Positions 2,111 through 29,381 of a DNA stretch of 32,000 nt are shown piece by piece. Position 1 is the stretch's first letter. Each line of letters opens with the position of its first letter. Where the stretch lies: positions 4,091,798-4,123,797 of the forward strand of contig NC_013595.1 of assembly GCF_000024865.1 (NCBI RefSeq), read 5' to 3'. Both the position numbers and the translations under genes were made by a program. The stretch comes from Streptosporangium roseum DSM 43021 (GTDB lineage: Bacteria; Actinomycetota; Actinomycetes; Streptosporangiales; Streptosporangiaceae). The notes under the pieces are model-generated. The model was not told where the DNA came from, did not search any database, and was given only the letters and a program-made list of their open reading frames with translations.

Positions 2111-2687
2111 TCAGCTCGGCTTGAGAACCAGGCCCGTCTCGGCGATGAAGCCGTTCAGCAGGTGATGGGCGGCCCGCAGCAGCCGGACGAAGTCGGGCAC
2201 GTCGAAGCCCTTCGGCTCGCCCTTGCGGTCGTGGAAGACCATCACCCGATACAGCAGCCGGGTGCGCCGTCCGGGCCGCACGCAGATCAGCCCGGCGATC
2301 GAGACCCTGCCCGAGCCCTTGACGACCGGCGTTTTACCGACCCGCGCCCAGGTACGGCCCTTGGGTGGGCGCAGGCTCTGACCGCTCTCGTCTTCGCAGG
2401 GGATCCAGGCGTGGCGTTCGGCGGCGTCGGCGCAGATCTGTGGCCAGACCTGCGCCACCCAGGCCGCAATCTGTTCCCCATCGTGCTCGGCCGCCCGATG
2501 CACCGGCATCTGCATTGATCAACGGCAGCTCAGAACAGCTGGTCGGCTCCCCGGTGATCGTCAACCGCGACAGCGCCTCCTCCGTGGCCGCCAACTCCTG
2601 ACGCAACCGCGCGACCCGCTCCCGCGCCGCCGCCTCCCCTAGCGCCAACTCTTCCTGCAACGGGCCCATCGCGATCGCCTCCAGCAC
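2111..2687 (-). pseudogene. IS630-family (DDE_3) transposase remnant, frame-disrupted and C-terminally truncated
   Basis: Two overlapping minus-strand ORFs (2334..2687 and 2111..2515) lie in different frames. The second carries the IS630-like stretch AEHDGEQIAAWVAQVWPQI...RPPKGRTWARVGKTPVV...RVSIAGLI...YRVMVFHDRKGEPKGF. It stops before the usual VWDN(L/A)xxH core, so no complete DDE domain is present. A lower-GC patch follows at 2040..2110. Confidence 0.55.
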
Positions 2688-12513: not shown

Positions 12514-14235
12514 GTGAAGACACCATTCGCCGCCTTCCGGCTCCGAATCGCGTTCATCTTCCTGGCGGTAGCGGCTTTCGTTCTGGGCTACGTCGGCATG
12601 CGGACCTATCTGGTCTCCCGGCCGGAGTTCGCGCGCTCGCCGCTGGACATCGTCTATTACGATCTCCAGCTGTTCGTTCTCGATCCCATCCCTTTCGACG
12701 GCATGACCCCGCTGCCGTGGACGCTGGAACTGGCCAGGTTCATCGCGCCCGCCGTGACGATCTACGCCCTGATCGAGGCGGCGCGGCTCATGCTCACCAC
12801 CGAGATCCGGCGGATCCGGGCGCGGGAGGCGCGGCGGCACGCCGTGATCTGCGGGGAGGGACCGATGGCCCGGGGACTGGTCGAGAAGCTGCGCGCCGCC
12901 GGGCGTGACGTCGTGGTGGTCACCTCCACCCCCGTCACCGTCCTGGACGACCCTCGCGTGCTCCAGGTGGTCGGCGACGCCCGCACCCCCGCCGTGCTCA
13001 GGGCGGCGGGGGTCGGCAGGGCCGAGGTGCTCTACGCCTGCGAGCAGGACAGCTCCACGAACACGGGGATCGCCCTGGCCGCTCACAGGGTCAGGCGGTC
13101 CGCCGCCGGCCCGCTGGCGGCCTACGTCCTCATCTCCGACCCCGATCTCTGCGCGGCCCTGCGTGCCCGGCGGCTGGGCGTGGTGGACCCGCCCGGCATC
13201 CGGCTGGACTTCTTCAACCTCGACGAACTCGCCGCCCGGGTGCTGCTGGACCGCGATCCCGTCGACGAATGCCTGCCCGTCACGCTTGTCGGCCTCGACG
13301 GCTTCGGCAGCGCGCTGCTCGTCGGCCTGGCCCGGCGGTGGCGGCTACGGTCTCCGCAGTCCCAGCCGAGACTGCCGGTGACCGTCATCGACGCGGACGC
13401 CGACGCGACACTGTCCGTCATACGCCGGAGATGCGAATTCATCGACTCCGTCCTCGACCTCACGACCGTCCACCCTCGCCTGCTCGACTCCGGCGAGCAC
13501 GCCCCCGCCGACGTGCCGCAGCGGGTGTACGTGTGCTACCGCGACGAGGACCTGGCCCTGAAGACCGCGCTGACCACCCTGCGGCTGTGGACCAGGTCAC
13601 CGCGCTCGCTCGTGATCCGGGTCGAACGGCAGGGAATGTTCGACCAGGCCTTCCAGGGAGTGAGCCTCCTGGAGGACCTGGCCGGCCTCCTGCGGGTGTT
13701 CGCCGTCACCGAGGAGGCCGGTGATCCGCGTCTGATCGCCGAGGACCTCATCGAGCAGCTGGCACGGACCATCCACGAGAACTACGTCTACGGCTGCCTC
13801 ACGAGCGGAGAGTCCCCGGAGACCAACGACTCGCTGGTCGCCTGGCCGAAGCTGCCCGAGAGCCTGAAGAAGGCCAACCGCAGCCAGGCCCAGGACATCG
13901 GCCGCAAGCTCAAGGCCGTCGGGGCCGTCCTCGCATCACGGGTGGACCCCGGACTCGGGTTCGCCTTCACCGAAGCGGAGATCGAGCGGCTCGCCGCCAT
14001 GGAGCACCGGCGCTGGATGGACGAGCGCGCCGCGGACGGCTGGACCCACGGCCCCTCCCGCGACACCGTCCGCAAGCTCCACCCCGACATGGAGGACTGG
14101 GCCCGCCTCCACGAATCGGCCAAGGAGAAGGATCGCAACGTCGTACGCCACCTGCCCGCCGTGCTCGCCATGGCCGGTTTCCAGATCGTCCGCATGGAGG
14201 GGGCCGCCCCGGAGGTCCCGCGGAGCTTCCTGTGA
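12514..14235 (+). CDS. 2-TM membrane protein with TrkA-N (Rossmann, NAD-binding-like) domain and C-terminal RyR (ryanodine-receptor repeat) domain
   Basis: GTG start with TGAGG 5 nt upstream. Two N-terminal hydrophobic helices are followed by a GxGxxA fold (AVICGEGPMARGLVEKLRAAGRDVVVV). The C-terminal region has LARTIHENYVYG...WPKLPESLKKANRSQA and ERLAAMEHRRWMDERAADGWTHGPSRD...LHPDMEDWARLHESAKEKDRNVVRHLPAVLAMAGFQIV, matching the bacterial RyR domain pattern. Confidence 0.75.
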   Translation: MKTPFAAFRLRIAFIFLAVAAFVLGYVGMRTYLVSRPEFARSPLDIVYYDLQLFVLDPIPFDGMTPLPWTLELARFIAPAVTIYALIEAARLMLTTEIRRIRAREARRHAVICGEGPMARGLVEKLRAAGRDVVVVTSTPVTVLDDPRVLQVVGDARTPAVLRAAGVGRAEVLYACEQDSSTNTGIALAAHRVRRSAAGPLAAYVLISDPDLCAALRARRLGVVDPPGIRLDFFNLDELAARVLLDRDPVDECLPVTLVGLDGFGSALLVGLARRWRLRSPQSQPRLPVTVIDADADATLSVIRRRCEFIDSVLDLTTVHPRLLDSGEHAPADVPQRVYVCYRDEDLALKTALTTLRLWTRSPRSLVIRVERQGMFDQAFQGVSLLEDLAGLLRVFAVTEEAGDPRLIAEDLIEQLARTIHENYVYGCLTSGESPETNDSLVAWPKLPESLKKANRSQAQDIGRKLKAVGAVLASRVDPGLGFAFTEAEIERLAAMEHRRWMDERAADGWTHGPSRDTVRKLHPDMEDWARLHESAKEKDRNVVRHLPAVLAMAGFQIVRMEGAAPEVPRSFL

Positions 14236-14298
14236 GCGGAGCCCTCTACGGGCGCGGGGCGCCCCGGAGACCCGATCCGTCCGGTCACCGCGGCTGTC

Positions 14299-15231
14299 TC
14301 ATCCGGCCACCAGGGGGATCACCACCAGCAGCAGGTCGGCCGCCAGGACCATGGACAGGCTCCGTTTGCGCATCGTCCTCTCATCGGGAAGGTTCTCGTC
14401 GGAGATGCCGGGCAGCAGGCCGAGTTTGTCGATGAGGAAAGCGGCGCAGGCCGCGACGCCCAGGAGTGACCACGCCGGGCCGTAGAGCCACCACAGGCCC
14501 CACCCGACGAGCACGAGCGCGCCCGCCGTGGCCGCGCAGGCCACCAGCAGGGACCGGTAGGCGCCGTGCCGTACGGCAGGCGGGCGGTCACCGGCGGCGG
14601 CGTCTCCGGCCAGGTCCGGAATGGACCACCACAGCGAGCGTCCGAACAGCAGCACCGCCAGGCCGGCGAACACCAGCCAGACGGGCGCCGGGACGTCCGG
14701 GCGGACGGCCGAGTAGGTCGACACGCAGGGCAGGAAGGCGAAGGTCAGGGCGAAGTAGGCGGGGTTGGCGAAGCCGCGCCGCTTCAGGCGGACGGGTTCG
14801 AGGTTGTAGAGCAGGTGCAGGACGATCGCCAGCCCCACGCCGATCGCCACCGCCGGACGGCCGAGCCCCACCGAGACCGCGGTCGCCAGCACCAGTGCCA
14901 GCGTCTTCTCGATCGCGGCGCACCGGAAGGCCACGGCCGGGCTGAGCCGCCGGGTCGCGGTGGCGATGCCGCCCTTCCCCCGCGTGTGGGAGTCCGCGCG
15001 GATGTCCAGCGCCGCGTTGAGCGGATTCTGCGAGACGACGGCGAGCAGGTTGGCCAGGAGGGTGACCAGTACGGGCACGGTGAACAGCTGCCCGGGGTCG
15101 GTCGCCGCGAAGCAGGCGCCCCAGAGCACGTGACACGCGTATACCGCCGGGAATGGGTATTCGAGCCGGTGGATGCGGATCAGTGCCCGTCCCCGGGTCA
15201 TCGGCCGGCTCCGAGTGGCCAGCGAGGTCAT
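14299..15231 (-). CDS. UbiA-superfamily membrane prenyltransferase / UbiA-type terpene synthase candidate
   Basis: About 8 TM helices. First Asp-rich motif NAALDIRAD (NxxxDxxxD) and second DLAGD (DxxxD) are present. AAGGAG lies 5 nt upstream of the ATG at 15231 (the ORF track starts at 15270). It is the last gene of the terpenoid operon, 49 nt after the P450 stop. Confidence 0.8.
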   Translation of the reverse strand: MTSLATRSRPMTRGRALIRIHRLEYPFPAVYACHVLWGACFAATDPGQLFTVPVLVTLLANLLAVVSQNPLNAALDIRADSHTRGKGGIATATRRLSPAVAFRCAAIEKTLALVLATAVSVGLGRPAVAIGVGLAIVLHLLYNLEPVRLKRRGFANPAYFALTFAFLPCVSTYSAVRPDVPAPVWLVFAGLAVLLFGRSLWWSIPDLAGDAAAGDRPPAVRHGAYRSLLVACAATAGALVLVGWGLWWLYGPAWSLLGVAACAAFLIDKLGLLPGISDENLPDERTMRKRSLSMVLAADLLLVVIPLVAG

Positions 15232-15280
15232 CGAATCTCCTTGAGTGTGGAGGCCCCGGGCTTCAGCCATGGGGAGGAAG

Positions 15281-16609
15281 TCAACCCTCGGTTCTCGTCA
15301 TGGGGGTGCCCGCGGCCGTCCCGCCCGATGTCCCGGCCCGCCGGGGGCACCCGCCGACCGCCATCCTGAGCGGCCCGGGACCCATGGCGGGCCCTCGCAG
15401 GTTCGGCACCCCGGCCTCGGGGTTGAGGCAGCGGAGAGCGTGCCGGCGCAGCACCGCCGCGACGACCATCCGCATCTCCAGCATGGCCAGGTTCGCGCCG
15501 AGGCACCGGCGGGTCCCTCCGCCGAAGGGGAGATACTCCTGGGCGGATCTCCGCGTGTCCAGGAACCGCGCGGGATCGAAGCGCCACGGGTGCGGGTAGG
15601 CCTCCGGGTTGCGATGGGCCAGGGCGATGCACGGGGTGAGGCGGGTGCCCGCAGGCATGGGCCGGCCGGCGATCCGCCGGTCGGCGGTGAGCGTCCGGTT
15701 GCCGGCGACCGTGGCGGGGGGAGAGATCCGCAGGGCTTCCTGGCACACCGCGTTCAGCAGGGGGACCCTCTCGGCGGCGGAGCCGTCGTCGCCGGTCGCG
15801 GCCAGCTCCTCCTGGACGTCGTGGCGGACGCGGTCGTCGCGGTGCAGCCAGAACAGGGTCCAGGCGATCGCGGACGCGGTCGTCTCATGGCCGGCGAACA
15901 GCAGCGACACCAGCTGGTCGGAGAGCTCCTCGTCGCCGACGGGGCCGAGGGGCTCGCTTCCGGCGGACAGCCGCGCGGCGAGCGTGGACGGTCCCGCGGC
16001 CGCCGTCGCGGGACGCGCGGCCTCCAGGAGGCTGTGGACGATCTCCGTCCTGCGCCGCCGGAAGGTCCGCCACGGTGACGGCAGCGGTCCGGGCACCCGC
16101 AGGTGGCGGTAGGCGAGGGTGCGGGGCCGGGATCCGAGCGTGTACTCCACCCACCTCGTGAAGGGGCCGAGCGTCTCGTGCCCGGCGTGGCCGAGCACGA
16201 TCTGCCCGATGATCCGGAGCGTCAGGTCGCGGGTCCATTCGGGCAGGCAGAACACCTCGCCCGGGACCAGCCCGTCCAGCGCGGCGTCGACGGCGTCACG
16301 GATGGTGCCGTGGTAGGCGGCCAGCCGGTGCCCGCGCAACGCCGTACCGACCACCTTGCGGTAGGCCGCGTGCCGTGGCCCGTTGGCGAAGAGCAGGGAG
16401 TGGGGCCCGACCAGAGGTCCCAGGGTGTCGCTGCCCTCCAGGACCATCTGCTGTTCGGAGCGGAAGATCTCCCCGACCGTCTCGGGGTGCCAGACCAGCA
16501 GTCGCGGCTCCGGAGCCGAGCCGAGCTCGACCATGCCGGTCCCGTCCGCGGCGTGGGCCTCCAGGAACGACCGCGTGCGCAGGGCGAACCGGTATCCGTT
16601 GAGGTTCAC
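15281..16609 (-). CDS. Cytochrome P450 monooxygenase
   Basis: Heme loop FGGGTRRCLG, I-helix LLFAGHETTASA and ExxR (EALR). Track ORF 15281..17287 runs 226 codons too far upstream, into the cyclase gene. I start at GTG 16609 (VNLNGYRFALRTRSFLE...), which has GGAGGGGG ~9 nt upstream. Confidence 0.9.
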   Translation of the reverse strand: MNLNGYRFALRTRSFLEAHAADGTGMVELGSAPEPRLLVWHPETVGEIFRSEQQMVLEGSDTLGPLVGPHSLLFANGPRHAAYRKVVGTALRGHRLAAYHGTIRDAVDAALDGLVPGEVFCLPEWTRDLTLRIIGQIVLGHAGHETLGPFTRWVEYTLGSRPRTLAYRHLRVPGPLPSPWRTFRRRRTEIVHSLLEAARPATAAAGPSTLAARLSAGSEPLGPVGDEELSDQLVSLLFAGHETTASAIAWTLFWLHRDDRVRHDVQEELAATGDDGSAAERVPLLNAVCQEALRISPPATVAGNRTLTADRRIAGRPMPAGTRLTPCIALAHRNPEAYPHPWRFDPARFLDTRRSAQEYLPFGGGTRRCLGANLAMLEMRMVVAAVLRRHALRCLNPEAGVPNLRGPAMGPGPLRMAVGGCPRRAGTSGGTAAGTPMTRTEG

Positions 16610-16661: not shown

Positions 16662-18395
16662 TCATCGCTGCCTCTCCAGGATCCGGGTCCGGGCCAGGGT
16701 GCGGGCGGCCAGCGTCTCGGCCCGGATGACCGCGACGGGCGCGTAGAGGTCCTTGTCGTGCCACAGGGGCGGGTACCGCCGGGCGTCGCCCCGGCGACCG
16801 TGACCGTCGGGTCCGTCGGGTCCGTCGGGTCCGCCGCGCTCGCCGTGGCGGTCATGGCCGCGGCGCCCGCCGGATCCGTCGTGGTCGTCGCGTCCGTCGT
16901 GGTCACGGTGGTCCGCGCGATGCTGCCCGGCGAGGAAGGCGTCACCGCGCAGCACGGCGCGGCGCACCGCGCCGTCGTCGCGTGCGGGGGCCCGGAGCAG
17001 GGTCTGCATCGCGTACGCGGTCTCCTCGGAGGTGCCGGACCACAGGCCCCATGACCCGTCGTGGCGCTGGGTGCCGAGCACCCACTCGGCGGCCGCGCGC
17101 AGCGCCGCGGCGGACGACGCGTCCCCGTGGCGGGCCAGGGCCGAGACGCTGCAGACCGTGGCGTAGTAGGGGGAGGCGTGCCATTTGTCGATCCAGCTCC
17201 CGTCGGGCCGCTGCTGCCCGTGCAGCCAGTGGGAGATCTTGCCGATCGCCCGCCGGTAGCGGGCCCGGTCCGCCGCGCCGGCCTCATGGTCCCCGAAGGC
17301 CATGAGGATGTGGGCGTTGGTGCTGGTGGAAGGAGTGCGCTCGGCGGCGAAGCAGCGGAAATGGGTGTCGGCCTCGTAGGCCCAGAGGCATTCCGGGGAC
17401 CGGGGCCTGCCGATGAGCGCCAGGGCGTGGAGCGCCCCGGCGGTGTCGTCCGAATCGGGCGGCAGGCCCGCGCCGGCGGGCACGCCGAGGTCGCCGAAGG
17501 CGGCGTGCAGGCTGTGGCCCAGCTCCCGGGGCGGCGCGGTGCCCGGAAACGCCTCGGCCAACGCCGAGAGCACCCAGGCCCGCTCGAAGACGCCGATCGG
17601 CGTCACGCCCGGGACCGGGCCGTCGTGCCTGGCCTGCACGGTGTGCAGGTATTCGATCGCGCGCCGCCGCTCCGTGCCCGCCCCGTCGCCGTCCCCGGGG
17701 CCCAGCCAGGCGGCGGTGGCGGCCGGCGAGCAGCCCACGGCCCCGCCGACGGGACGCACCTGGGGAGCCTGTACGGCGGTGCCCCCCAGCGCCTCCAGGG
17801 AGTGCCAGACCTTCGGGGGCAGCGCGTGCCCCTGCCCGGCGGCATGGCGGAGCCGGTCGAGGGGGGCCGGATCCCACCCGTCGGGTGTGTGGAGGCGCCC
17901 CGAGCCGTGCCAGGCGGCCAGTCCGGGGACGGGGTGCCTCTCCAGCGCGTCCAGATGCCGGTTGATCTCGCCGACGAGCCAGGGGATGAGGAACTCCGCC
18001 CCGATGGTGTCCGGAAGGACGGCTCTCGACTGGGGGTCCAGCCGCGCGAACAGCGCGTGCAGGCCGCGGTGGACGGCACCCGCGACATCGCTGTGGCCGG
18101 ATGCGGCCCGCTCGCCGGGCCGGGCGGCGCTCACCACGGTGAACAGGGCCTCGACCGCGCTGAGGGTGGGGACCAGCACGTAGGGGCCCGGTCCTCCCCA
18201 GGTGCCGTCCGGGTTCTGGCCCCGGATCAGGAACTCGATCCGCCGCCGGTGGCCGCTCAGCCACGGTGCCGACGCCACCAGCCGGGCCGTCTCGTAGACC
18301 GAGGCGGTGACCTGACCCATGGGATCGACGGCGATCTCAGCGAGAAGGTCCTGGGGAGAGGCTCCGGCGGGACGTGCCGTACGCGTGGTGCTCAT
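16662..18395 (-). CDS. Class II terpene cyclase (DxDD type, prenyltransferase/squalene-oxidase repeat fold); probable bicyclic prenyl-diphosphate (e.g. copalyl diphosphate-type) synthase
   Basis: DxDD-type general-acid motif in LPPDSDDTAGALHAL. The N-terminal DPMGQVTASVYETARLV resembles bacterial class II diterpene cyclases. QW-like repeats are present (QNPDGTWGG, QRPDGSWIDKW, QRHDGSWGLW). GGAGGA lies upstream of the ATG at 18395. A 50-aa H/D/R/G-rich insertion sits near the C-terminus. Confidence 0.85.
   Translation of the reverse strand: MSTTRTARPAGASPQDLLAEIAVDPMGQVTASVYETARLVASAPWLSGHRRRIEFLIRGQNPDGTWGGPGPYVLVPTLSAVEALFTVVSAARPGERAASGHSDVAGAVHRGLHALFARLDPQSRAVLPDTIGAEFLIPWLVGEINRHLDALERHPVPGLAAWHGSGRLHTPDGWDPAPLDRLRHAAGQGHALPPKVWHSLEALGGTAVQAPQVRPVGGAVGCSPAATAAWLGPGDGDGAGTERRRAIEYLHTVQARHDGPVPGVTPIGVFERAWVLSALAEAFPGTAPPRELGHSLHAAFGDLGVPAGAGLPPDSDDTAGALHALALIGRPRSPECLWAYEADTHFRCFAAERTPSTSTNAHILMAFGDHEAGAADRARYRRAIGKISHWLHGQQRPDGSWIDKWHASPYYATVCSVSALARHGDASSAAALRAAAEWVLGTQRHDGSWGLWSGTSEETAYAMQTLLRAPARDDGAVRRAVLRGDAFLAGQHRADHRDHDGRDDHDGSGGRRGHDRHGERGGPDGPDGPDGHGRRGDARRYPPLWHDKDLYAPVAVIRAETLAARTLARTRILERQR
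16806..16832. repeat. 3 x 9-bp perfect tandem repeat (GTCGGGTCC) inside the cyclase gene, encoding GPDGPDGPD
   Basis: Read directly at 16806..16814, 16815..16823 and 16824..16832. It lies within a wider low-complexity coding stretch at 16773..16922. Confidence 0.9.
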
Positions 18396-18522: not shown

Positions 18523-19737
18523 TCACGGCTCTGGCGCGCTTCCTGAGGGCGCCGGGACGTCGTCGCCCGCGTCCGCCTGCTCGGCGAGGCGCGTCGCCTC
18601 CTCGATGAGAGCTTCGATGATCTTCGATTCCGGGACGGTGGCGACGACCCGGCCGCGGACGAAGATCTGCCCCTTGCCGTTGCCGCTCGCGACGCCGAGA
18701 TCGGCCTCGCGGGCTTCGCCGGGCCCGTTGACGACGCAGCCCATGACGGCCACCCGCAGGGGCAGGGGGAACCCGTCGAAGGCGGCGGCGACCTGGTCGG
18801 TGAGCCGGTAGACGTCGACCTGCGCCCGGCCGCAGGAGGGGCAGGAGACGATCTCCAGCCGGCGCGGCCGCAGCCCGAGGGACTGGAGGATCTGCGTCCC
18901 GACCCTGACCTCTTCCACCGGTGGAGCGGACAGGGAGACGCGGATGGTGTCGCCGATGCCCTCGGCCAGCAGGATGCCGAACGCGGTGGCGGACTTGACG
19001 GTGCCCTGGAAGGCGGGACCGGCCTCGGTGACGCCGAGATGCAGGGGGTAGTCGCAGGACGCGGCCAGCACCCGGTAGGCGGCGATCATGGTCAGCGGGT
19101 CGTGGTGCTTGACGGAGACCTTGAGATCGGCGAAGCCGTGCTCCTCGAACAGGGAGCACTCCCACAGGGCCGATTCGGCCAGCGCCTCGGGGGTGGCACT
19201 GCCGTACTTGGCCAGTAACCGCCTGTCGAGGGAACCGGCGTTGACGCCGATCCGGATCGGGATCCCGGCCGCGCCGGCCGCACGGGCGATCTCCCCCACC
19301 TTGTCGTCGAAGGCCCGGATGTTGCCGGGATTGACCCGGACTGCGGCGCACCCGGCGTCGATGGCGGCGAAGACGTATCTGGGCTGGAAGTGGATGTCGG
19401 CGATCACCGGGATGGTGGATTTCCTGGCGATCTGCGGCAGGGCGTCGGCGTCGTCCTGGGACGGTACGGCGACGCGGACGATCTCGCAGCCCGCGGCGGT
19501 GAGTTCGGCGATCTGCTGGAGGGTGGCGCCGACGTCGGCGGTGACGGTGGTGGTCATCGACTGCACCGACACCGGGGCGTCCCCGCCCACCGCGACCCCG
19601 CCCACCTGGAGCCGGCGGGTCACCCGGCGCGGCCTGAGGACGGCGGAGGCAGGCGACGGGGAGGGAGACGACCGCGGGGCCGTGGGCGGGGCGCCGGTAC
19701 CGGGCATGCCCAGGAGGACGGGGGCGCTCATGACCAT
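18523..19737 (-). CDS. ispG: 4-hydroxy-3-methylbut-2-en-1-yl diphosphate (HMBPP) synthase
   Basis: [41 protein letters not shown] and the C-terminal CPSCGR Fe-S motif are present. The start overlaps the dxs stop (19728..19730). Confidence 0.95.
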
Positions 19738-21671
19738 CCTCCGACCGGCCGGGGCTCGCCCGCCGGTGAAGGGGCCGTCCGCCCGGGGACTCCCGGGCGG
19801 ACGGCCTCCAGCACGGAGGCGGTGATCGAGCGGTGGTCCAGGCCGGCGGCGGCCAGCAGGTGGGCGCGTTCACCGTGGCCGATGAACTCCCTCGGCAGAC
19901 CGAGGGTGCGTACCGGCGTCGTCAGGCCGGCGTCGGCGCACGCGGTGGCGATCGCCGTGCCGACGCCCCCGGTACGCAGGCCGTCCTCGGCGGTGACCAC
20001 CAGATGGTGCGCGGCGGCCAGCTCGACCAGCACCGGGGAGACCGGCGCCACCCAGCGCGGGTCGACCACCGTCACGCCGACCCCGTGGTGACGGAGCTGC
20101 GCGGCGGCGGCCAGGCACGGTCCCGCGAGCGGCCCGACGGCCACGAGCAGGGCCTGGTCGCCGTGCTGGGACAGCACGTCGACGCCGTCCGGACCGCCGA
20201 GCCTCCGTGGCGCCGCGATGTCAGGGCCGGCATTGGCCTTGGGATAGCGGACCACGGTCGGCCCGCCGTCATGGCCGACGGCCTCGTGGAGCAGCTCGCG
20301 CAGCCGGGTCGCGTCGCGGGGGGCGGCGATCCGCAGTCCGGGGATCATGCCGAGCAGCACCAGATCCCACATGCCGTGGTGGCTGGGGCCGTCCGGTCCG
20401 GTGATCCCGGCCCGGTCCAGGACGAACGTGACGGGGAGCCGGTGCAGGGCGACGTCCATCAGCGCCTGGTCGAAGGCCCGGTTGCAGAAGGTCGCGTACA
20501 TCGCGACGATCGGATGCATGCCGTTCAGGGCGAGCCCCGCGGCGCAGGCGACGGCGTGCTGCTCGGCGATGCCGACGTCGAAGAAACGGTCGGGGAACCT
20601 GGTCGCGAACTCGGCCAGCCCGGTCGGGCCCGGCATCGCCGCCGTGATCGCCACCACGCCGGGATGCTCGGCGCCGATCACGGTCATCTCGTCGGCGAAC
20701 AGCGACGTCCACGACGGCGGCGCCGCGCCGGGCACGTCGTGCGGGCGTCCGGTGGCCGGGTCCAGCACCCCGATCCCGTGCATGTGGTCGGCCCTGTCGT
20801 TCTCGGCAGGGCCGTACCCCTTGCCCTTGACCGTCACCGCGTGCACCACCACGGGCCGGCGCAGGGCACGGGCCTGGCGGAGTGCCCCCTCCAGCGCGCC
20901 GATGTCGTGGCCGTCGACCGGTCCCAGGTAGGAGAAGCCCAGGCTTTCGAACACGTTGGGGACGCCCGGCCGGGGAGAGGGGACCCCGGGCCGGCGCAGG
21001 GTGGCGAGGTGGCTCGCGAGCCCGCCGACCGTGGGGGCGTAGGAGCGGCCGTTGTCGTTGAGCACGATGATCGCGGGGCGGCCGGGCGCGGCACCGAGGT
21101 TGTTCACCGCCTCCAGCGCCAGGCCGCCGGTCAGCGCCCCGTCCCCGATCACCGCCACCACGTGCCTGTCCGTGTGGCCGCGGAGCTGGAAGGCCCTCGC
21201 CAGGCCGTCGGCGTAGGACAGGGCGGTCGAGGCATGGGAGTTCTCGACGAGGTCGTGGACCGACTCCGCGCGGCTCGGATACCCGGACAGCCCGCCAGCC
21301 TGGCGCAGCCGGTCGAAGCCGCCCTGGCGGCCGGTGAGGATCTTGTGCACGTAGGCCTGGTGGCCGGTGTCGAACACGATCGCGTCCCGGGGCGAGGCGA
21401 ACACCCGGTGCAGCGCGATGCTGAGCTCCACCGCCCCCAGGTTGGGACCCAGATGACCACCCGTGGCGCTGACCTTGTCCACCAGGAAACGGCGGATCTC
21501 GCCGGCCAGTTCGGGCAGCCGGCCCGGTGGCAGGCGGCGCAGGTCGCCGGGGCCGTTGATCCGGGGGAGAAGGCCGCTCGTGATCGTCGTGCCGGTGCCG
21601 GCCGGCGTTTTCGCGGCGGAGGCGGCGTCCTGGCTCGCGTGGGGGACGGCGGTGGCGATGTCAGCGCTCAT
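19728..21671 (-). CDS. dxs: 1-deoxy-D-xylulose-5-phosphate synthase
   Basis: [36 protein letters not shown], the ThDP motif [15 protein letters not shown] and [11 protein letters not shown] are present. The protein is 647 aa. The start overlaps the ispH 3' end by 11 nt. Confidence 0.95.
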
Positions 21672-22680
21672 TCGTACGCACTTCCTTAGGCGGAGCGAAG
21701 CGGACGGTTTCGGTGGTGTGGCGGTGCTCCCGGACCCGCAGCGGCCCCAGGCCGCGGAGAAAGGCGATGACCTCCTCCACCAGGTGGTGCGGGGCCGAGG
21801 CGCCCGCGCTCAGGCCGATCACGCGGGCCCCGTGGAGCCATCCGGGTTCGATGCCGCCGGCGTCGTCGATCAGGTGGGCCGGGGTGCCCTGGCGCCGGGC
21901 GAGCTCGACCAGCCGCACCGAGTTGGAGGAGTTGACCGATCCGACGACCAGCACCAGGTCGGCGGCGGCGGCGATCCCCGCCACGGCGTGCTGCCGGTTG
22001 GTGGTGGCGTAGCAGATGTCGTCGCTGCCGGGCCCGGAGAGCGCCGGGAACCGGTCCCGCAGCGCCTCGACCACCTCGGAGGTCTCGTCCACTGCCAGGG
22101 TGGTCTGGGTCAGATAGGACACCCGGGTGGGGTCGTCGACCTCCAGGGCGGCCGCCTCGGCGGGGGTCTGGACCAGCACGCTCTGCCGCGGCGCCTCGCC
22201 GAGGGTGCCCTCGACCTCCTCGTGCCCGGCGTGCCCGATCAGCACGACGGTGTCGCCGCGCGCGGCGAAGCGGCGGGCCTCGACGTGCACCTTGGTGACC
22301 AGGGGGCAGGTGGCGTCGACCACCCGCAGCCCCTTGCGGCCGGCCTGCGCCCGGACCGCCGGGGAGACGCCGTGCGCGGAGAACACCACGGTCTCCCCGT
22401 CGGGCACCTCGTCGAGCTCCTCGACGAAGACGGCGCCGCGCCGCCGTAGATCGGCGACCACGTGAACGTTGTGCACGATCTGCTTACGGACGTAGACGGG
22501 GGCGCCGCGGTCGGCCAGGACGCGTTCCACGGTCTCGATCGCCCGCTCGACACCGGCGCACAGCGAGCGGGGTGAGGCCAGCAGCACCGTCCGGACGGAG
22601 CCGTCGGGCAGCCCGCCGACCGGCGGTCCGTCCATGGTCAGCCCGTCCGTAGGCGTCGTCGTGGGCATGTGGTCGGCCAT
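21661..22680 (-). CDS. ispH: 4-hydroxy-3-methylbut-2-enyl diphosphate reductase (canonical, all catalytic residues present)
   Basis: [67 protein letters not shown] and GASAP match the E. coli residues C12/H41/H74/C96/H124/E126/T167/C197/S225-N227/S269. The ATG at 22680 lies 1 nt after the upstream gene's stop. Confidence 0.95.
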
Positions 22681-22681
22681 G

Positions 22682-23728
22682 TCAGCGGTCCCGCCGGGTG
22701 ATCAGCTGGGCCAGCAGGCGGAGGTCGCCGGCCGCTTCCGGGGCGGGGTCGGCCTGCCGCAGGCAGGCCAGCGCGGCGGCGAGGTTGGCCTCGGCCTCCC
22801 GCTGCGCCCAGGCGCGGGCACCGGCCGCCTCGATGAGGTCGGCGGCATGGGCGAGGGACCGCTCGTCCAGGATCCGGTCGCCGTGGTAGAGCCGGGCCAG
22901 CCGCTCGCCCGCGGGGGTGCCCGAGGTGAGGGCGGCGACCACCGGCAGGGACTTCTTGCGGGCGGCCAGGTCGGAGAAGACGGGTTTGCCGGTGACGGCG
23001 GGATCCCCCCAGATCCCCAGGAGATCGTCCGTGAGCTGGAAGGCCAGCCCGAGATGGTGGCCGAACCGCCCGAACAGCCCGGCGCGGTCCTGGCCGGCGC
23101 CACCGGCCAGCGCGCCGATCTCGCAGGCGCAGCCCAGCAGCGCCCCGGTCTTGCCCGCGGCCATCTCGACGCACTGGGCGAGGGTGACGTCGGTACGGGT
23201 TTCGAACGCCAGGTCGGCGCTCTGCCCTGAGCACAGCCGTAGCAGCGAGCCGGTCAGCACCCTCAGGCCCGGGCTCCCGGCGAGCAGGTCCAGGGCGAGG
23301 GTCAGCAGCACGTCGCCGGCCAGGATGGCCTCGCCGACCCCGAACACCGACCACGCGGCCGGCCGGTGCCTGCGGGTCAGGTCGCCGTCCATGATGTCGT
23401 CGTGCAGCAGGGAGAAGTCGTGGACCAGCTCCACCGCGACCGCGGCCGGCACCGCCGCCCGGACGGTCTCCGCGTCCTCGCCGCCGGCCGCCCACGCCGA
23501 GGCCAGCACCAGGGCCGGCCGGACCGCCTTGCCGCCGCCCTGCCGCGGGCGGCCTTCGGCGTCCCACCAGCCCGCGTGGTAGCCGGCGATGTGGCGGATC
23601 TCCTCCGGCAGGCGGTCCACCGCGCCGCGGTGAGCCGGTCCGGCCAGCTCCTGGGCCGCGGCCAGTACCTCATGTGCCGATCGCGTGGTGCTGTCGGTGA
23701 AGCCGAGCACTGGTGCGGTCGTCACCAC
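22682..23728 (-). CDS. Polyprenyl diphosphate synthase, probable geranylgeranyl diphosphate synthase
   Basis: [14 protein letters not shown] and [13 protein letters not shown] are present. I prefer GTG at 23728 ([10 protein letters not shown]...), with GGAAAGAGG ending 5 nt upstream, over the track start at 23827. Chain length cannot be read from sequence (Phe at -5 of FARM); GGPP is inferred from context. Confidence 0.85.
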
Positions 23729-24129
23729 ACTCACCTCTTTCCTGTTTTTCCGGATTTCCGGGCGCTGCCGGAGCGATATGAACGGACGCGGCCGACGCCG
23801 CATCCCCGCGACGAAGGGCAGGCTCACTTCCAGTACGGCTGGCGCCGCAATGTCTCGGAACCCCCCGGCGCCGGGGGAGTGGTTTCATTTGCCGGCCGTG
23901 TTTCACGCCGGTGGCCGAGGTCGCGGGGCGCGCCTCCGGGCCACCGGTGGACGGAAAGGAAAGGAGGCGGAGAGCCGTACGGCCGGAGCGGCGGCCGCGG
24001 CCGTTGCCGCAGATGGAAGCGGTGAGCCGGACGGCCGTCCCCGGGCGGGCGCCCATCGGCGGGCGGCCCGCCCGGCCCTGTGCCCGAGAACGGAGGACTA
24101 TTGTCGCCGCGCCGGGTGAGAGGACCCGG

Positions 24130-25512
24130 ATGGCGACAGGACACCGACCGAACGTCCGGCTGCGGGCACTGCTGACCGAGACCGGGTGGACCGGCCAGCA
24201 ACTGGCCGGCGCGGTGAACGATCTCGGCGTCGAGGCGGGGGTGACGCTGAGGTACGGCCGGGCGGCGGTCGCGCACTGGCTGGCGGGCATGCGTCCGCGC
24301 TCTCCGGTGCCGGACCTGGTGGCCGAGGCGCTGTCGCGCCGGCTCGGGCGCTCCCTGACCGCCGCCGAGATCGGTCTGTCGCGGCCGGATCGGGAGCCCC
24401 GCGACCCTGCCGGCGCCGACGTCGGCGGCGCGGCCTGGTGGGAGGCGGACGCCCTGGCCGGGCTGGTCGAGCTGCACGCCGGGCCCCGCCCCGGCCGGCG
24501 GCGGGTGCTGGAGGAATGCGTCTACAACCTGGCCGCGCTGACCGTCCCCGGCTGGGCCGACGCCACGGTGGCGGCGGTGACCGCCGGCGGCGGCCGCGAT
24601 CCGGCGCCGCGGATAGGCGCCCCGCAGGTGGAGGCGGCCGCGGCGATGGCCCAGGTGTTCTCCTACACCGACACGGCCTTCGGCGGCGGCCAGGCCCGCC
24701 GGGCCCTGTCGGGGTATCTCGCCGTGGACGTCGTGCCGTGGCTACGGTGCCGGATGAGCTCAACCACCCGCCGCAGGATGCTGTCGATCGCCGCCGAGCT
24801 GACATACCTGTGCGGTTTCATGTGCTTCGACGAGCAACTCCACGGTGCCGCGCAGCGCTACTACCAGGCGGCCCTGAAGCTCGCCGCCGAGAACGGCGAC
24901 GCGGTCGGTTACGCGGTCACCCTGCGGGCGCTGTCGGTTCAGGCCTACACCCTGGGACACCACCGTCATGCCCTCGACCTCGCCGAAGCGGCCCTGTCGG
25001 GTGTCCCGGGGGCGATCGAGCCCGGCACCCGGGCCTTCCTCCACGGGCAGGCCGCCGTCGCCGCGGCCGCGAGCCGGAGCGAGTGCCGCGCCGCGCTGAC
25101 GCACCTCCGCGCGGCCGAGCACCATCTGGATCACGCCGTCGCCACGACGGGGACCGGCGCGGAGACGGTGGGCGCCTACCACCAGGCGTCCCTCGCCCAT
25201 CAGCACGCCGCGGTGCTGACCGCGCTGGAGGACCGGCCCGCCGCCGTCGAGGCCCTGACCACCTCCATACGGCACCGCCCGGCCACCGAACGCCGGGCCC
25301 GCGCGCTCACCTCCGCCACCCTGGCGGGGCTCTACCTCGACCAGGGGCATCTGGAACAGGCCGCGGCCACCTGGCACACCTTCCTCGACGACTATCCCCA
25401 TCTGAGCAGCGGACGGACCCGCGCCGCCCTGGCGACGCTCAAAGCGCGACTCCGCCCCTACCAGCGCAACACCCTCGCCAGAGGGGTGCTGCAGCGCGCC
25501 GCGACCATGTGA
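24130..25512 (+). CDS. Transcriptional regulator, N-terminal HTH (XRE-like) with C-terminal helical TPR-like domain
   Basis: MATGHRPNVRLRALLTETGWTGQQLAGAVNDLGVEAGVTLRYGRAAVAHWLAGMRP... is an N-terminal pattern I recognise from a family of actinomycete regulators. The C-terminal half is Ala/Leu-rich repeats (YYQAALKLAAENGD...). GAGAGGA lies 7 nt before the ATG at 24130. It is divergent from the terpenoid operon. Confidence 0.7.
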   Translation: MATGHRPNVRLRALLTETGWTGQQLAGAVNDLGVEAGVTLRYGRAAVAHWLAGMRPRSPVPDLVAEALSRRLGRSLTAAEIGLSRPDREPRDPAGADVGGAAWWEADALAGLVELHAGPRPGRRRVLEECVYNLAALTVPGWADATVAAVTAGGGRDPAPRIGAPQVEAAAAMAQVFSYTDTAFGGGQARRALSGYLAVDVVPWLRCRMSSTTRRRMLSIAAELTYLCGFMCFDEQLHGAAQRYYQAALKLAAENGDAVGYAVTLRALSVQAYTLGHHRHALDLAEAALSGVPGAIEPGTRAFLHGQAAVAAAASRSECRAALTHLRAAEHHLDHAVATTGTGAETVGAYHQASLAHQHAAVLTALEDRPAAVEALTTSIRHRPATERRARALTSATLAGLYLDQGHLEQAAATWHTFLDDYPHLSSGRTRAALATLKARLRPYQRNTLARGVLQRAATM

Positions 25513-25639: not shown

Positions 25640-26902
25640 TTGAACAGGACCAAGATCCGGGAACGTTTCGCCTGCCAGAAGGTACCCAGGGGAGGAGTGG
25701 TCGTCGCCTCCTCCTTCGGACACCCCGACCGGGGGGTGATCGAGTGTCCGGCCGCGCCGGCCCTGGGCGCGGCGCTGGCCCGCGACGGGCTGCGCGTGCG
25801 CTACGCGCCGCTGACCGCGGACCCGGCCGGCCGGCCCGCTCCCCGCGGCGGCCACATGCTCGCCGTCTCCTACCTCGAACGCGACGGCCGTGCCGCCGGC
25901 CTCGCGGCCGCCGTCCACCCCGACGATCATGCCGCCACCGAGGTGGTCGGCGACGCGATGAGGCGGTGGGAGGCCGCCATGCGCAGCCGCCGCGTCCTGC
26001 TGGCCGGCACCCGGCCGGCCTGTCCCGGTGCCCGGCGGGCCCTGGAGATCACCCGGGACACGGCCGGCGGCGGCCAGGCGGTGTTCAGCTACGGCCCCGT
26101 CACCGACGACCCCCACCAGGCCGGGGCCCTGACCCGCGAGGGCGTCACCACGGTCACCGATCTCGACCGGCTCCCGGAGGGGGCCGGCGTCGTCTTTCCC
26201 GCCCACGGCGTGTCCCTGGCGCTGCGCGCCGAAGCCGCCGCCCGTGGCCTGACGATCATCGACGCCACCTGCCCCCTGGTGGCCGCGGCCCACGCCGAGG
26301 TGGCGCGCTTCACCGAACGCGGAGACCTCACCGTCGTGATCGGCAGGTCCGGTGACGCGGCCGTCTCCGCCGTCCTCGGCCAGGCCCCGGAATCGACCGT
26401 CCTGGTGGAGAGCGCCGCCGACGTGGAGCGGCTCCGGCCGGCCGACCCGGAGGCGATCTCCTACCTGGTCCAGACCGGCATCCCCGTCGAGCAGGCCACT
26501 CCCGTCGTCGCCGCCCTCCGCGCCCGCTTCCCCGCCCTGCGCGGTCCCGACCCCGGCGACTTCTGCTATCACGCCTCCGACCGCGCGAGCGCCGTCGCCT
26601 CCATCACCGGCGCCAGCGATCTCCTGCTCATTGCCGCGGGATCACACTGCCCGGACGCCCGGCACGTCGTCCGCCTCGCCGAGCCGGCCGGCGTCCCGGC
26701 GCAGGTCGTCACCGGCGTCGCCGACCTGTGCCCGGACCGGCTGCGGGAGGCCGCCACCGTCGCTCTCACCAGCGCCCGGTCGGCTCCGGCCGGGCTCTCC
26801 GAGCAGATCGTCACGATCCTGTCCGGCCTGGGCCCTCTCGGCGTCGTCAACCGTCACGTCACCAGCGACATCGTCACCGGCCGGACGCGCGCGCGGGCGT
26901 GA
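25640..26902 (+). CDS. Divergent IspH/LytB-like Fe-S protein with N-terminal extension (probably not an HMBPP reductase)
   Basis: From aa ~118 it aligns with the neighbouring ispH and with E. coli IspH (RRVLLAGTRPACPGARRA, FPAHGVS, DATCPLVAAAH, FCYHASDRA, SARSAP). All 3 cluster Cys are kept, but [10 protein letters not shown] is GRSGDAAVSA and SVNSSNS is GSHCPDA. The start is uncertain: TTG at 25640 is the ORF limit, and GC3 rises only from ~25697. Confidence 0.7.
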   Translation: MNRTKIRERFACQKVPRGGVVVASSFGHPDRGVIECPAAPALGAALARDGLRVRYAPLTADPAGRPAPRGGHMLAVSYLERDGRAAGLAAAVHPDDHAATEVVGDAMRRWEAAMRSRRVLLAGTRPACPGARRALEITRDTAGGGQAVFSYGPVTDDPHQAGALTREGVTTVTDLDRLPEGAGVVFPAHGVSLALRAEAAARGLTIIDATCPLVAAAHAEVARFTERGDLTVVIGRSGDAAVSAVLGQAPESTVLVESAADVERLRPADPEAISYLVQTGIPVEQATPVVAALRARFPALRGPDPGDFCYHASDRASAVASITGASDLLLIAAGSHCPDARHVVRLAEPAGVPAQVVTGVADLCPDRLREAATVALTSARSAPAGLSEQIVTILSGLGPLGVVNRHVTSDIVTGRTRARA

Positions 26903-26928: not shown

Positions 26929-27957
26929 CTACCCGTACGCCGGGCGGCGTTCCGGGGCGCCGGCCAGGCGGGCCAGGCGGCGGTAGGAGTCGAGCCGCTC
27001 GCCGTGGTCGAAGGTGTTCATGGTGACCAGCACCTCGTCGGCGCCGCTGCGCTCGACCAGCTCCCGCACCGCGGCCGCGACCTCGTCCGGCGTGCCGTGG
27101 ATCTGCCCCCGCAACGCCTCCTCGAAGAGGGCGCGTTCCCGGTCGGTCATGTCCATGGCGAGGATCTCCCCGGCGGGGGCGAGCGGCGGGAAGACCCCGT
27201 GGGTGCGGGAGAAGGCGGTCGCCCACGCCTCGGGCACCTGCAGGCGGCGGGCCCGCTCGGCGGTCTCGGCGACCGCGATGTTGGCCGCGACGACGACGTA
27301 CGGCCGCGCCGACCAGGCCGAGGGCCGGAAGAGACCGCGATAACGGGTGATCGCCTGCAGCGTGCGCTCCCGGTCGCCTGCCGCCGCGATCACCAGCGGC
27401 AGCCCGTGCTCGGCGGCGATGTCCGCGCCGGCACCCGTGGCGAGCACGTATGCGGGCACCCGCAGACCTTCGGCGGGAAACGCGTGCACGCCCGGATGCG
27501 CCTTCTGGTCACCGGTGAAGTAGCCGAGCAGCTCGGCCAGCTGGTCGCCGAAGCCCTCCGCGTCGTGCTTGTCGTGGCCGAGCGCGCGCCGGATGCCGCC
27601 GGTGAAGCCGACCGAACGGCCCAGGCCCATGTCGATACGGCCCGGGTAGAGCGATTCGAGGACGCCGAACTGCTCGGCGACGACCAGCGGCCGGTGGTTG
27701 GGGAGCATCACGCCGCCGGTGCCGATCCGGATGCGCGAGGTCGCGGCGGCGACGGCGGCGGCCAGGACGGTCGGTGCCGAGCCCGCCACCCCTGGCACCC
27801 CGTGGTGCTCCGACACCCAGAAGCGGTGGTAGCCCAGGGCTTCGGCCTCCTGCGCGAACCTCACGGTGTCGCGCAGTGCCTGCGTGTGGTCGTGCCCCCG
27901 GCGGATGAGGGAGCGATCCAGGATCGAGAGCCGCGTCGTCTGAAGTGCTGCGTTCAC
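26929..27957 (-). CDS. LLM-class (luciferase-like) flavin-dependent oxidoreductase
   Basis: RLSILDRSLIRRGHD...FAQEAEALGYHRFWVSEHHGVPGVAGSAPTVLAAAVAAATSRIRIGTGGVMLPNHRPLVVAEQFGVLESLYPGRIDMGLGRS is a typical LLM family signature. I chose GTG at 27957; the ORF extends to ATG 28047, which has no convincing RBS. Confidence 0.85.
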   Translation of the reverse strand: MNAALQTTRLSILDRSLIRRGHDHTQALRDTVRFAQEAEALGYHRFWVSEHHGVPGVAGSAPTVLAAAVAAATSRIRIGTGGVMLPNHRPLVVAEQFGVLESLYPGRIDMGLGRSVGFTGGIRRALGHDKHDAEGFGDQLAELLGYFTGDQKAHPGVHAFPAEGLRVPAYVLATGAGADIAAEHGLPLVIAAAGDRERTLQAITRYRGLFRPSAWSARPYVVVAANIAVAETAERARRLQVPEAWATAFSRTHGVFPPLAPAGEILAMDMTDRERALFEEALRGQIHGTPDEVAAAVRELVERSGADEVLVTMNTFDHGERLDSYRRLARLAGAPERRPAYG

Positions 27958-28620
27958 CCTCCCTTCAACATCCTTCTCCGCCGGGGATTCCCCGGCAGGG
28001 CTCCCGGAGGCCCCGGGACACGCGGCCTCGAGGTGTTCTCCGGACATCCGGATGGGGATCGTGAGCGTGAAGGAGGGTGGGCGGGCCTCCGCGCCGAGCC
28101 GGCCCGCCGCGCCGTCGCCGGGGACCGGGAGGGCGCGCGGGCCGCGACCGCGCGAGCCGGGACAATCGTTGACTCAAGCGCTTGGTTGTTTTGGCGGATA
28201 ATCCGGAAAGCCCCTCACCTCCGCCGGTGGCCGGAGGCGGCTGGCGGGGATTTCCGCTGGTCGAATTGTTTGTCAAGCGCCCGCGGGGCATCCGTGTCCG
28301 GAGCGGCACGCCGTGGCCCGGCCGGCGGCGCCGTATTAGGCGGGCCGGCGTGTATCCGGCGTGATTGGAATCAACGTGGCGCCATCCGGTGCGTTACGGT
28401 CTCCGGGCGGGAGTCCGGGATTCGGGGAGGGGGCCTTCGTCACCGGTCTGAGCTGCGAGAACAATATTTCCGGGCGATTTTGTGCGCGGTGTTCCGGGGC
28501 TGCGGGATTGCCGTTGATTCACCGGCCGGCGGCTTTTATCACGCGGCGCTTATCTCAACAGATTTTCGTGGATTTGCGATACGAAATCGCCGTCTGACTG
28601 AACTGTCTGACGCGGAGATA

Positions 28621-28682: not shown

Positions 28683-29381
28683 ATGAAACGCCTCCGAAAT
28701 CTCGTTCTCGCCGTGACCGCCGTCGTGCTGGCACTCGCGTTCGTCCCGACCTCCGCTTGGGCGGCCACCACTCAGATCCACAGGAACGACCAGTTCGGCG
28801 CGCTCTACTCCGGCAAGGTCAGGGCGACGCTGCTCGGCAACGTGTCGATCAGCACCACCCTCGCCACCGCCACCTGCAACGTCGGCGTCATCGACGGCAC
28901 CGTGCAGTCGAACGGCACCATGCTGAACGTCTCGGCCTACAACTTCAGCAACAGCCCCGGCCCGCAGTGCCCCAACAGCGCCGGCGGCCAGTCCAGCGTG
29001 ACCGCGGTCGGGCTCCCCTGGAACGGCGGCAACGTCACCTTCGCCCCGGTCCTCCCCAACGGACGCGACGGCACCATAACCCTCAACAGCGTCAAGGTCA
29101 CCTCGTCGAGCACCGGCTGGTTCGGCACCATCAGCTGCACCTACAAGGGTTCCGGCGCCGGCAACAGCATCGTCCTGGACGCCTTCAACTCCACCAACCC
29201 CAACCGTCCGGTCATCGGGGTGGTCCAGGCCCAGGCCGGGGCGGTCAACTACACCCTCAACAAGGACAGCGGCAGCTTCCTGTGCCCCAGCACGGCCAGC
29301 TTCAGCGCCACCTTCCAGCTTCTCGGTGAGACCGTCGCCAACTCGGGCGTCTACAACCAGAAGCTCCACCTCACCGCCTGA
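28683..29381 (+). CDS. Secreted hypothetical protein (Sec signal peptide, 4 Cys, Ser/Thr/Asn/Gly-rich, beta-rich)
   Basis: MKRLRNLVLAVTAVVLALAFVPTSAWA|ATTQ is a clear signal peptide with an AxA cleavage site. There is a strong RBS, and GC3 is high in this frame. I recognise no domain. Confidence 0.7.
   Translation: MKRLRNLVLAVTAVVLALAFVPTSAWAATTQIHRNDQFGALYSGKVRATLLGNVSISTTLATATCNVGVIDGTVQSNGTMLNVSAYNFSNSPGPQCPNSAGGQSSVTAVGLPWNGGNVTFAPVLPNGRDGTITLNSVKVTSSSTGWFGTISCTYKGSGAGNSIVLDAFNSTNPNRPVIGVVQAQAGAVNYTLNKDSGSFLCPSTASFSATFQLLGETVANSGVYNQKLHLTA

Follow-up and report, generated by a model that had tools for sequence, protein, structure and literature searches.

Which reaction does a UbiA-fold membrane protein perform when its gene closes an operon that also encodes a class II diterpene cyclase? 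This question is raised by a region of the Streptosporangium roseum DSM 43021 genome (NC_013595.1, positions 4,091,798 to 4,123,797), the whole 32,000 nucleotides of which are referred to below as the window. Seven co-directional genes of the minus strand of the window encode a geranylgeranyl diphosphate (GGPP) synthase (GGPPS), IspH, DXS, IspG, a class II cyclase, a cytochrome P450 and, as the last product, the UbiA protein. Here we conclude that the UbiA protein is probably a diphosphate-ionising diterpene synthase, which acts on the product of the neighbouring cyclase. Judging from its sequence, the gene is a homologue of ptmT1/ptnT1, i.e. it represents a rare enzyme type that has already been described.

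The UbiA gene and its product

The features of the gene, with coordinates in the window, are as follows.

14299..15231, minus strand: UbiA-fold membrane protein, predicted PtmT1/PtnT1-like diterpene synthase, 310 aa (PF01040, PtnT1 homology, AlphaFold2 fold)
15237..15242, minus strand: Shine-Dalgarno sequence AAGGAG, with a 5-nt spacer to the ATG at 15231 (read directly)
14992..15018, minus strand: first Asp-rich motif, N72-A-A-L-D76-I-R-A-D80 (NxxxDxxxD), putative Mg2+/diphosphate-binding site
14773..14808, minus strand: Y142-N-L-E-P-V-R-L-K-R-R-G153 block, the strongest family signature
14602..14616, minus strand: second Asp-rich motif, D206-L-A-G-D210 (DxxxD), from the alignment of 50 homologues

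The longest open reading frame of the gene (14299-15270, minus strand) encodes 323 aa. The closest relative of its product, with 97% identity, is found in Streptosporangium minutum, followed by the S. canum homologue, which is 96% identical and likewise comprises 310 aa. Because of this length and of the AAGGAG sequence preceding the ATG at 15231, the shorter frame (14299-15231, 310 aa) is the best gene model. This agrees with an earlier sequence-only reading, which had placed a gene for a protein of about 310 aa at these positions, at the end of the operon; the gene that follows it is convergent. The GC content of the three codon positions of the ORF (0.71/0.53/0.89) is typical for a genuine high-GC gene; the window itself is GC-rich DNA of actinomycete type.

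The protein matches the UbiA family of Pfam (PF01040; 81.5 bits against a cut-off of 34.2, E 7.5e-23) over residues 48-280 of the 323-aa ORF. Both hydropathy and an AlphaFold2 model reveal about nine hydrophobic segments or transmembrane helices, rather than the approximately eight counted earlier. The two Asp-rich motifs previously recognized, NAALDIRAD and DLAGD, were confirmed at residues 72-80 and 206-210, respectively. Among the 50 aligned homologues N72, D76 and D206 do not vary, while D80 and D210 are conserved in at least 90% of the sequences. Compared with the canonical NDxxD, the Asp that directly follows the Asn is replaced by Ala, and the region of the second motif reads P-DxxxD-xxxxD. 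Within the block Y142-G153, for which a diphosphate-binding role may be proposed from its sequence, residues Y142, P146, L149, K150 and R152 are invariant in the same alignment; the most conserved stretch of the family lies here, and the corresponding pattern, EP[VI]RLKRRG, was used to scan genomes.

The AlphaFold2 model, built on the homologue alignment, has a pLDDT of 94.7 and a pTM of 0.91. Its comparison with known UbiA structures, as proposed in the sequence-only reading, returned the UbiA fold: the best Foldseek matches were AfUbiA, DGGGP synthase, ApUbiA and UBIAD1, with TM scores of up to 0.71/0.77 (0.71/0.76 for AfUbiA 4tq4) and sequence identities of 15-17%. A phmmer search of PDB sequences with the UbiA protein produced no match at E <= 1, and only the fold comparison links it to the solved UbiA structures. 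The PDB matches, whether from the sequence search or from the fold comparison, included no UbiA-type terpene synthase.

The seven-gene operon

The remaining genes of the operon, in the order of their transcription, are listed below, together with the catalytic motif of the cyclase.

22682..23827, minus strand: polyprenyl (geranylgeranyl) diphosphate synthase, whose gene opens the operon (PF00348)
21661..22680, minus strand: IspH/LytB of the MEP pathway (PF02401, E 1.8e-91)
19728..21671, minus strand: DXS of the MEP pathway (DXP_synthase_N and transketolase domains)
18523..19737, minus strand: IspG/GcpE of the MEP pathway (PF04551, E 5.8e-139)
16662..18395, minus strand: class II diterpene cyclase, PtmT2-like (match to PDB 5bp8, DSDD)
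17445-17456, minus strand: DSDD, the alkene-protonating DxDD motif of the cyclase (residues 314-317, from the sequence)
15281..16609, minus strand: cytochrome P450, 442 aa from the GTG at 16609 (PF00067, E 1.4e-50)

Six of the operon genes are tightly spaced or overlapping, and a gap of 127 nt separates the IspG gene from the cyclase gene. The GGPPS scores 334 bits with the NCBIfam model of the GGPP synthase IdsB, which is below the cut-off of 475. The cyclase was aligned with its counterparts from other loci, the rows L006, L007, L008 and L022 being taken in and L001, L005 and L044 left out.

The sequence-only reading had also stated that the window encodes neither a soluble class I synthase nor an aromatic-acceptor pathway, and this description was borne out. 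There was no Pfam terpene-synthase match among the large ORFs of the window, tblastn of the window with PtmT3 gave no match below E = 1, and no window ORF of at least 200 aa contains both a DDxx[DE] and an NSE/DTE motif. Likewise, no genes of an aromatic-acceptor pathway were found in the window.

Relationship to PtmT1/PtnT1

Essentially a single characterised example is known of a UbiA-type diterpene synthase acting on an already bicyclic diphosphate, namely PtmT1/PtnT1. In the biosynthesis to which these enzymes belong, PtmT2 makes ent-copalyl diphosphate (ent-CPP), the UbiA-type PtmT1/PtnT1 leads to ent-atiserene, and the canonical PtmT3 to ent-kauranol (PMC10301674, PMC4004862). PtmT1 has been described as a dedicated UbiA-type ent-atiserene synthase that uses ent-CPP (PMC10847714, PMC10301674, PMC4004862). 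In these papers the support for its function is genetic and comes from deletion mutants: loss of ptmT1 sharply lowered platencin, while the double deletion of ptmT1 and ptmT3 abolished all products (PMC10847714). The S. platensis strain SB12054 (delta-ptmR1/delta-ptmT1/delta-ptmT3) is presented there as a platform for synthases that use ent-CPP (PMC10847714). Activity on a bicyclic prenyl diphosphate had been called biochemically uncommon in the sequence-only reading, which appears overstated, since the type was described in 2011, by Smanski et al. as cited in PMC10847714, and a 2022 survey reports "likely UbiA cyclases" in 14% of 342 actinobacterial gene clusters with ent-CPP synthases (PMC9814783).

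The UbiA protein of the window and PtnT1 of Streptomyces platensis share 198 of 307 residues (64% identity, 75% similarity, E 7e-139). Three homologues, all 64-65% identical, are the closest outside Streptosporangium, and one of them, P0005, represents a cluster of sequences at 90% identity that includes an entry named PtnT1, Streptomyces platensis (E2CYS2) and several entries named ent-atiserene synthase [S. platensis]. This cluster of PtmT1 orthologues was also the top representative in a profile search (438.7 bits). P0005 is located in Streptomyces decoyicus, at a locus (L001) that is a platensimycin/platencin (ptm) cluster: its cyclase matches PtmT2 (PDB 5bp8) with 1125.7 bits, and for its CoA ligase the match to PtmA2 (5upq) reaches 1174 bits. 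The flanks of this locus, which encode TauD, an acyl-CoA dehydrogenase, a class I synthase, a P450 and an APH-like protein, presumably correspond to the "PTM cassette". In the tree obtained by neighbour joining, the sister group of the Streptosporangium clade is the PtmT1/PtnT1 clade of Streptomyces and Kitasatospora, whose Kitasatospora member is located in a ptn-type cluster. The nearest homologues examined from outside Streptosporangium (L001, L009 and L086) reside in ptm/ptn-type clusters or, in the case of L009, next to a gene for a PtmA2-like CoA ligase (84% identical).

The resemblance extends to the neighbouring genes. The window cyclase matches the ent-CPP synthase PtmT2 (PDB 5bp8; 412 bits, E 3.6e-122) and is 46% identical to a PtmT2 orthologue, while the P450 shows 62% identity to the one encoded between ptmT2 and ptmT1 at the S. 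decoyicus locus (L001:8679-10004). A P450 gene in this position was seen at that locus, and the order of the accessions ACO31274 and ACO31276 agrees with it (PMC4004862). PtmT1 and PtnT1 (GenBank ACO31274, ADD83014) are likewise proteins of about 308-310 aa with NxxxDxxxD and DxxxD motifs and the YNLEPVRLKRRG block, and in their clusters the PtmT2-like DxDD cyclase, the P450 and the UbiA protein are encoded in the same order as in the window, with GGPPS and MEP genes nearby.

There are also clear differences. The host is Streptosporangium here and Streptomyces in the case of PtmT1/PtnT1. Unlike ptm/ptn, the window cluster ends at the scaffold stage: it does not encode PtmA1/A2 CoA ligases, a thiolase/hydratase (beta-oxidation-like) set, alpha-KG dioxygenases, aminobenzoate/amide-synthase functions, a PtmT3 class I synthase or FabF-type resistance. 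Since every downstream gene of platencin biosynthesis is missing from it, the end product differs from platencin.

Comparison with other UbiA systems

Acceptor-free terpene synthases of the UbiA fold also include the fungal enzymes Fma-TC, EriG and Tps1A/2A of Antrodia, and the bacterial StlTC (lydicene). These use FPP or GGPP directly, whereas the window protein has a class II cyclase as its partner, which implies a bicyclic substrate. For UbiA-type terpene synthases with acyclic substrates the Asp-rich motifs are essential (PMC9835599, PMC10301674). The motif definition of the fungal type (Fma-TC/EriG/Tps1A; PMC9835599) differs from what is seen in the window protein, which has NxxxDxxxD together with P-DxxxD-xxxxD.

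It is precisely this retention of the canonical, transferase-type NxxxDxxxD and DxxxD motifs that lends some credit to another function, i.e. that of a true prenyltransferase, moving the copalyl group or GGPP to a non-terpenoid acceptor that other parts of the genome would supply. The closest solved folds are all prenyltransferases: AfUbiA (4tq3/4tq4), ApUbiA (4od4/4od5), DGGGP synthase (7bpu) and UBIAD1 (8djk) have the nine-helix fold in common with the model (TM 0.6-0.77). However, these enzymes transfer a prenyl group to an acceptor, and with 15-17% identity they lie beyond the reach of phmmer at E <= 1, whereas the characterised protein nearest to that of the window (64% identical) is a synthase.

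Besides the aromatic UbiA prenyltransferases, a further parallel is provided by the UbiA enzymes of the AtoD type, encoded in actinomycete terpene clusters (perhydrophenanthrene meroterpenoid clusters of the atolypene, brasilicardin and phenalinolactone type), where their genes also lie next to those for a class II cyclase and for a prenyl diphosphate synthase (PMC11600129). AtoD acts before cyclisation, on an epoxidised linear chain to which, once ionised, it adds a three-carbon (C3) unit, and the core of this system consists of an epoxidase, an epoxide-protonating class II cyclase with the xxxE-TAE motif, a prenyl synthase and the UbiA enzyme (PMC11600129). Such a core is absent from the window, where the cyclase carries DSDD and the operon contains no gene for a flavin epoxidase; by this description of the cluster, the two systems can be set apart. 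The sole flavin-type enzyme is an MsnO8-family LLM oxidoreductase encoded outside the operon (26929-28047). Moreover, no acceptor pathway was found in the window or at L005, where the cassette stands alone. Prenyl transfer is therefore highly improbable. The sequence-only reading had left synthase and transferase side by side, and of these it is the synthase, acting on the class II product, that is favoured by the identity to PtnT1, the synteny and the sister position of the clades.

Distribution of the cyclase-P450-UbiA cassette

A database search with the UbiA protein identified 131 homologues of about 300 aa, all from actinomycetes or soil metagenomes. Scanning with the family profile, which covered one genome per species, yielded 80 loci, at which synteny was judged by tblastn with the window proteins. 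The genes for the cyclase, the P450 and the UbiA protein are co-linear and abutting at 70 of these loci; at five more the cyclase gene, the P450 gene or both were found within 10 kb. Two loci have neither, a single one (L010) carries cyclase and P450 genes that are just distant relatives (approximately 30% identical), and for another two the upstream sequence is too short for a judgement. The loci originate from Streptosporangium, Streptomyces, Lentzea (about 30 species), Amycolatopsis, Kutzneria, Kibdelosporangium, Actinophytocola, Prauserella and Pseudonocardia, and one further locus comes from a record titled Rhodococcus rhodnii. Most of the cassettes stand alone, with no GGPPS gene (e.g. 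in Amycolatopsis thermoflava), and among the 80 loci the full seven-gene operon is common only to those of Streptosporangium (L006-L008). This distribution shows that the trio constitutes a conserved mobile cassette, present across Pseudonocardiaceae, Streptosporangium and Streptomyces.

The PtmT1-like UbiA family is small and distinct. When 1.84 billion representatives were searched exhaustively with the profile, only 46 reached E <= 1e-30. Full-length clusters with more than 250 bits account for about 25 of them, after which the scores fall into generic UbiA proteins; the next-nearest UbiA representatives score 116-206 bits and bear uninformative names.

These findings also bear on the view that the UbiA protein belongs to primary metabolism (ubiquinone/menaquinone, heme O, chlorophyll, decaprenyl-phosphate or archaeal-lipid type) and merely adjoins the operon. 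Many homologues are indeed named "4-hydroxybenzoate polyprenyltransferase" or "lycopene elongase", which we have set aside as automated labels. All curated NCBIfam models of UbiA subfamilies, among them UbiA, MenA-like, chlorophyll synthase, homogentisate phytyltransferase and archaeal-type enzymes, score far under their cut-offs with the protein (at best 39.8 bits against 269 for NF009523, 28.8 against 212 for chlorophyll synthase and 16 against 181 for ubiA_other), and we reject a primary-metabolism assignment on this basis; orthology of this kind had been named in the sequence-only reading as an observation that would speak against its proposal. With a family so small, and so nearly always sharing an operon with the genes of a class II cyclase and of a P450, a role in primary metabolism can hardly be entertained.

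The trio that builds the scaffold in platencin biosynthesis thus represents a widely distributed cassette, which has a bearing on the assembly of the platensimycin and platencin clusters.

Predicted pathway and product

The most likely function of the UbiA protein, as judged from sequence comparison, would be to ionise (ent-)CPP in an Mg2+-dependent manner and to cyclise it, giving ent-atiserene or a closely related tetracycle, which the P450 would then oxidise. Within this scheme we infer the stereochemistry of the substrate, the product skeleton, the regiochemistry of the P450 and the metal-dependent mechanism. DXS, IspG and IspH would supply extra isoprenoid precursors and the GGPPS would supply GGPP, which the DxDD class II cyclase may protonate to form the bicyclic copalyl diphosphate, most likely ent-CPP as in the case of PtmT2. 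The membrane-embedded UbiA enzyme would hold the diphosphate via Mg2+ bound to N72xxxD76xxxD80 and D206xxxD210, and would ionise the allylic diphosphate of (ent-)CPP inside a membrane-embedded cavity. The resulting cation would then cyclise and rearrange (pimarenyl to beyeranyl to atiseranyl), and its deprotonation would most likely give ent-atiserene. The enzyme would use no acceptor substrate. Finally, the P450, encoded between both cyclase genes, would oxidise the hydrocarbon. For the P450 of the ptm cluster, PtmO2, a C-19 oxidation to the acid has been proposed, and that of the window may do likewise; in that case ent-atiserenoic acid or a close relative would be expected from the operon.

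For ent-atiserene itself as the main product, the prospects are even or slightly better. The product outcome is insecure at an identity of only 64% for a terpene synthase, and the choice between ent-CPP and normal or syn-CPP is not readable from the sequence, since the window cyclase and PtmT2 have an identity of only 46%. The same two values lend weight to the idea that an enzyme of the same type and mechanism converts CPP of some stereochemistry into another skeleton, such as ent-kaurene, ent-beyerene, ent-trachylobane, pimaradiene, a hydroxylated product or a new scaffold. It also accords with the context of the cluster, which beyond the scaffold genes is wholly unlike ptm/ptn, and with the mixed products of synthases acting on ent-CPP, e.g. 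the ent-kauranol, ent-beyerene and some ent-atiserene formed by PtmT3 (PMC10847714). On the other hand, the clades of Streptosporangium and of PtmT1 are immediate sisters, and the whole cyclase-P450-UbiA cassette is co-conserved, including a P450 that needs to accept the product. For these reasons we favour a conserved scaffold and consider another skeleton less likely, although it is a fair possibility.

A scaffold other than ent-atiserene is conceivable, if less likely, for the Streptosporangium operon and possibly also for the stand-alone cassette (70 of 80 loci, about 30 Lentzea species). If this were true, the PtmT1-like family would comprise functionally diverse membrane diterpene synthases, the widespread cassette would lead to a conserved, so far undescribed diterpenoid of actinomycetes, and the platensimycin and platencin clusters would have recruited an older cyclase-P450-UbiA module.

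The minimal seven-gene operon, containing an enzyme 64% identical to PtnT1, offers a clean expression system for studies of product specificity and of the role of the P450, and the Streptosporangium UbiA enzyme could be a more tractable orthologue for structural work. Nothing is overturned by these results, which represent a sound annotation and a reasonable lead for genome mining.

Flanking regions of the operon

Two genes border the operon.

12514-14235, plus strand: RyR/TrkA-N domain gene, convergent, downstream of the UbiA gene (Pfam)
23911..25512, plus strand: NsdA-family TPR-like regulatory protein, divergent (NF053720, 363.7 bits against a cut-off of 75)

From its position, the NsdA-family protein is a possible regulator of the cluster. 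A 166-aa ORF downstream of the UbiA gene (13788-14288, minus strand) was rejected as a gene, having no Pfam match and failing the codon-position GC criteria. A scan for terminator and promoter consensus sequences around the 3' end of the UbiA gene found nothing, and the convergent intergenic region on this side contains only GC-rich inverted repeats. The rest of the window encodes transporters, a copper-type P-ATPase, heparinase-like, LysR and MmyB-like proteins and transposases, as well as a second LytB paralogue.

Conservation of the cyclase-P450-UbiA cassette

The genes encoding the class II cyclase, the P450 and the UbiA protein, which close the operon, abut one another and are co-linear in 70 of the 80 related genomes (loci L006 to L085), including approximately 30 Lentzea species. 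In most cases no GGPPS gene accompanies them, and the trio mostly stands alone. The three genes look like a conserved mobile cassette, one that is also present in the platensimycin/platencin (ptm/ptn) clusters. The following loci of other genomes provide two examples and a variant context:

L005, 7245-10888: cassette
L044, 7648-10822: cassette
L003, 3859-10921: variant context, Kibdelosporangium banguiense

In the K. banguiense locus, a gene for an AMP-binding enzyme is followed directly by that of the UbiA homologue (55% identical), and also present there are two different P450s and a cyclase that is distantly related (31%), together with a NUDIX protein and MEP genes. This arrangement may represent another chemistry for the same UbiA family.

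Structure of the class II cyclase

16662-18395, minus strand: class II cyclase gene (insertion at approximately nt 16780-16930)

Close to its C-terminus, the window cyclase carries a low-complexity insertion of approximately 46 aa, rich in His, Asp, Gly, Arg and Pro (…HRADHRDHDGRDDHDG…GPDGPDGPDGHG…), part of which is encoded by 9-nt tandem repeats (16804-16833 and 16877-16904). PtmT2, the ent-CPP synthase, differs in lacking this insertion. The length of the insertion varies in the cyclases of S. minutum and S. canum, and it is absent from that of Streptosporangium sp. NPDC023963.

GGPPS, a candidate regulator and a second LytB/IspH paralogue

22682-23827, minus strand: GGPPS gene
23911-25512, plus strand: NsdA-family TPR-like regulatory protein gene (363.7 bits; cut-off 75)
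25640-26902, plus strand: second, divergent LytB/IspH paralogue, 420 aa

In the NCBIfam comparison, the top model for the GGPPS was 'family 2 encapsulin nanocompartment cargo protein polyprenyl transferase' (437.1 bits; cut-off 450), ahead of the GGPP synthase IdsB model (334 bits); the best profile matches begin approximately 45-50 residues inside the ORF, and the window showed no encapsulin gene. The NsdA-family gene is transcribed divergently from the GGPPS gene, and its product is a candidate regulator of the cluster. Past it, on the strand opposite to the operon, lies the LytB/IspH paralogue, which has an N-terminal extension of approximately 115 aa and scores under all NCBIfam IspH cut-offs (195 versus 420 bits). 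Long LytB proteins (446 aa) also occur in the K. banguiense locus and in the Kitasatospora ptn-type locus L086.

Boundaries of the region

14201-14267: GC-rich inverted repeats
29579-30709, minus strand: IS4-family transposase gene (Nterm_IS4 and DDE_Tnp_1)
2111-2515, minus strand: weak IS630-like fragment

Where the UbiA and RyR/TrkA-N genes converge, no canonical T-tract terminator was found; the inverted repeats located there (11 nt, 91% complementary, 43 nt between the arms) reach with their left arm into the 3' end of the RyR/TrkA-N gene (stop at 14235). The wider region is bordered by the IS4-family transposase gene and the IS630-like fragment. An unassigned 232-aa ORF (28683-29381) has an unusually low first-position GC of 0.53.
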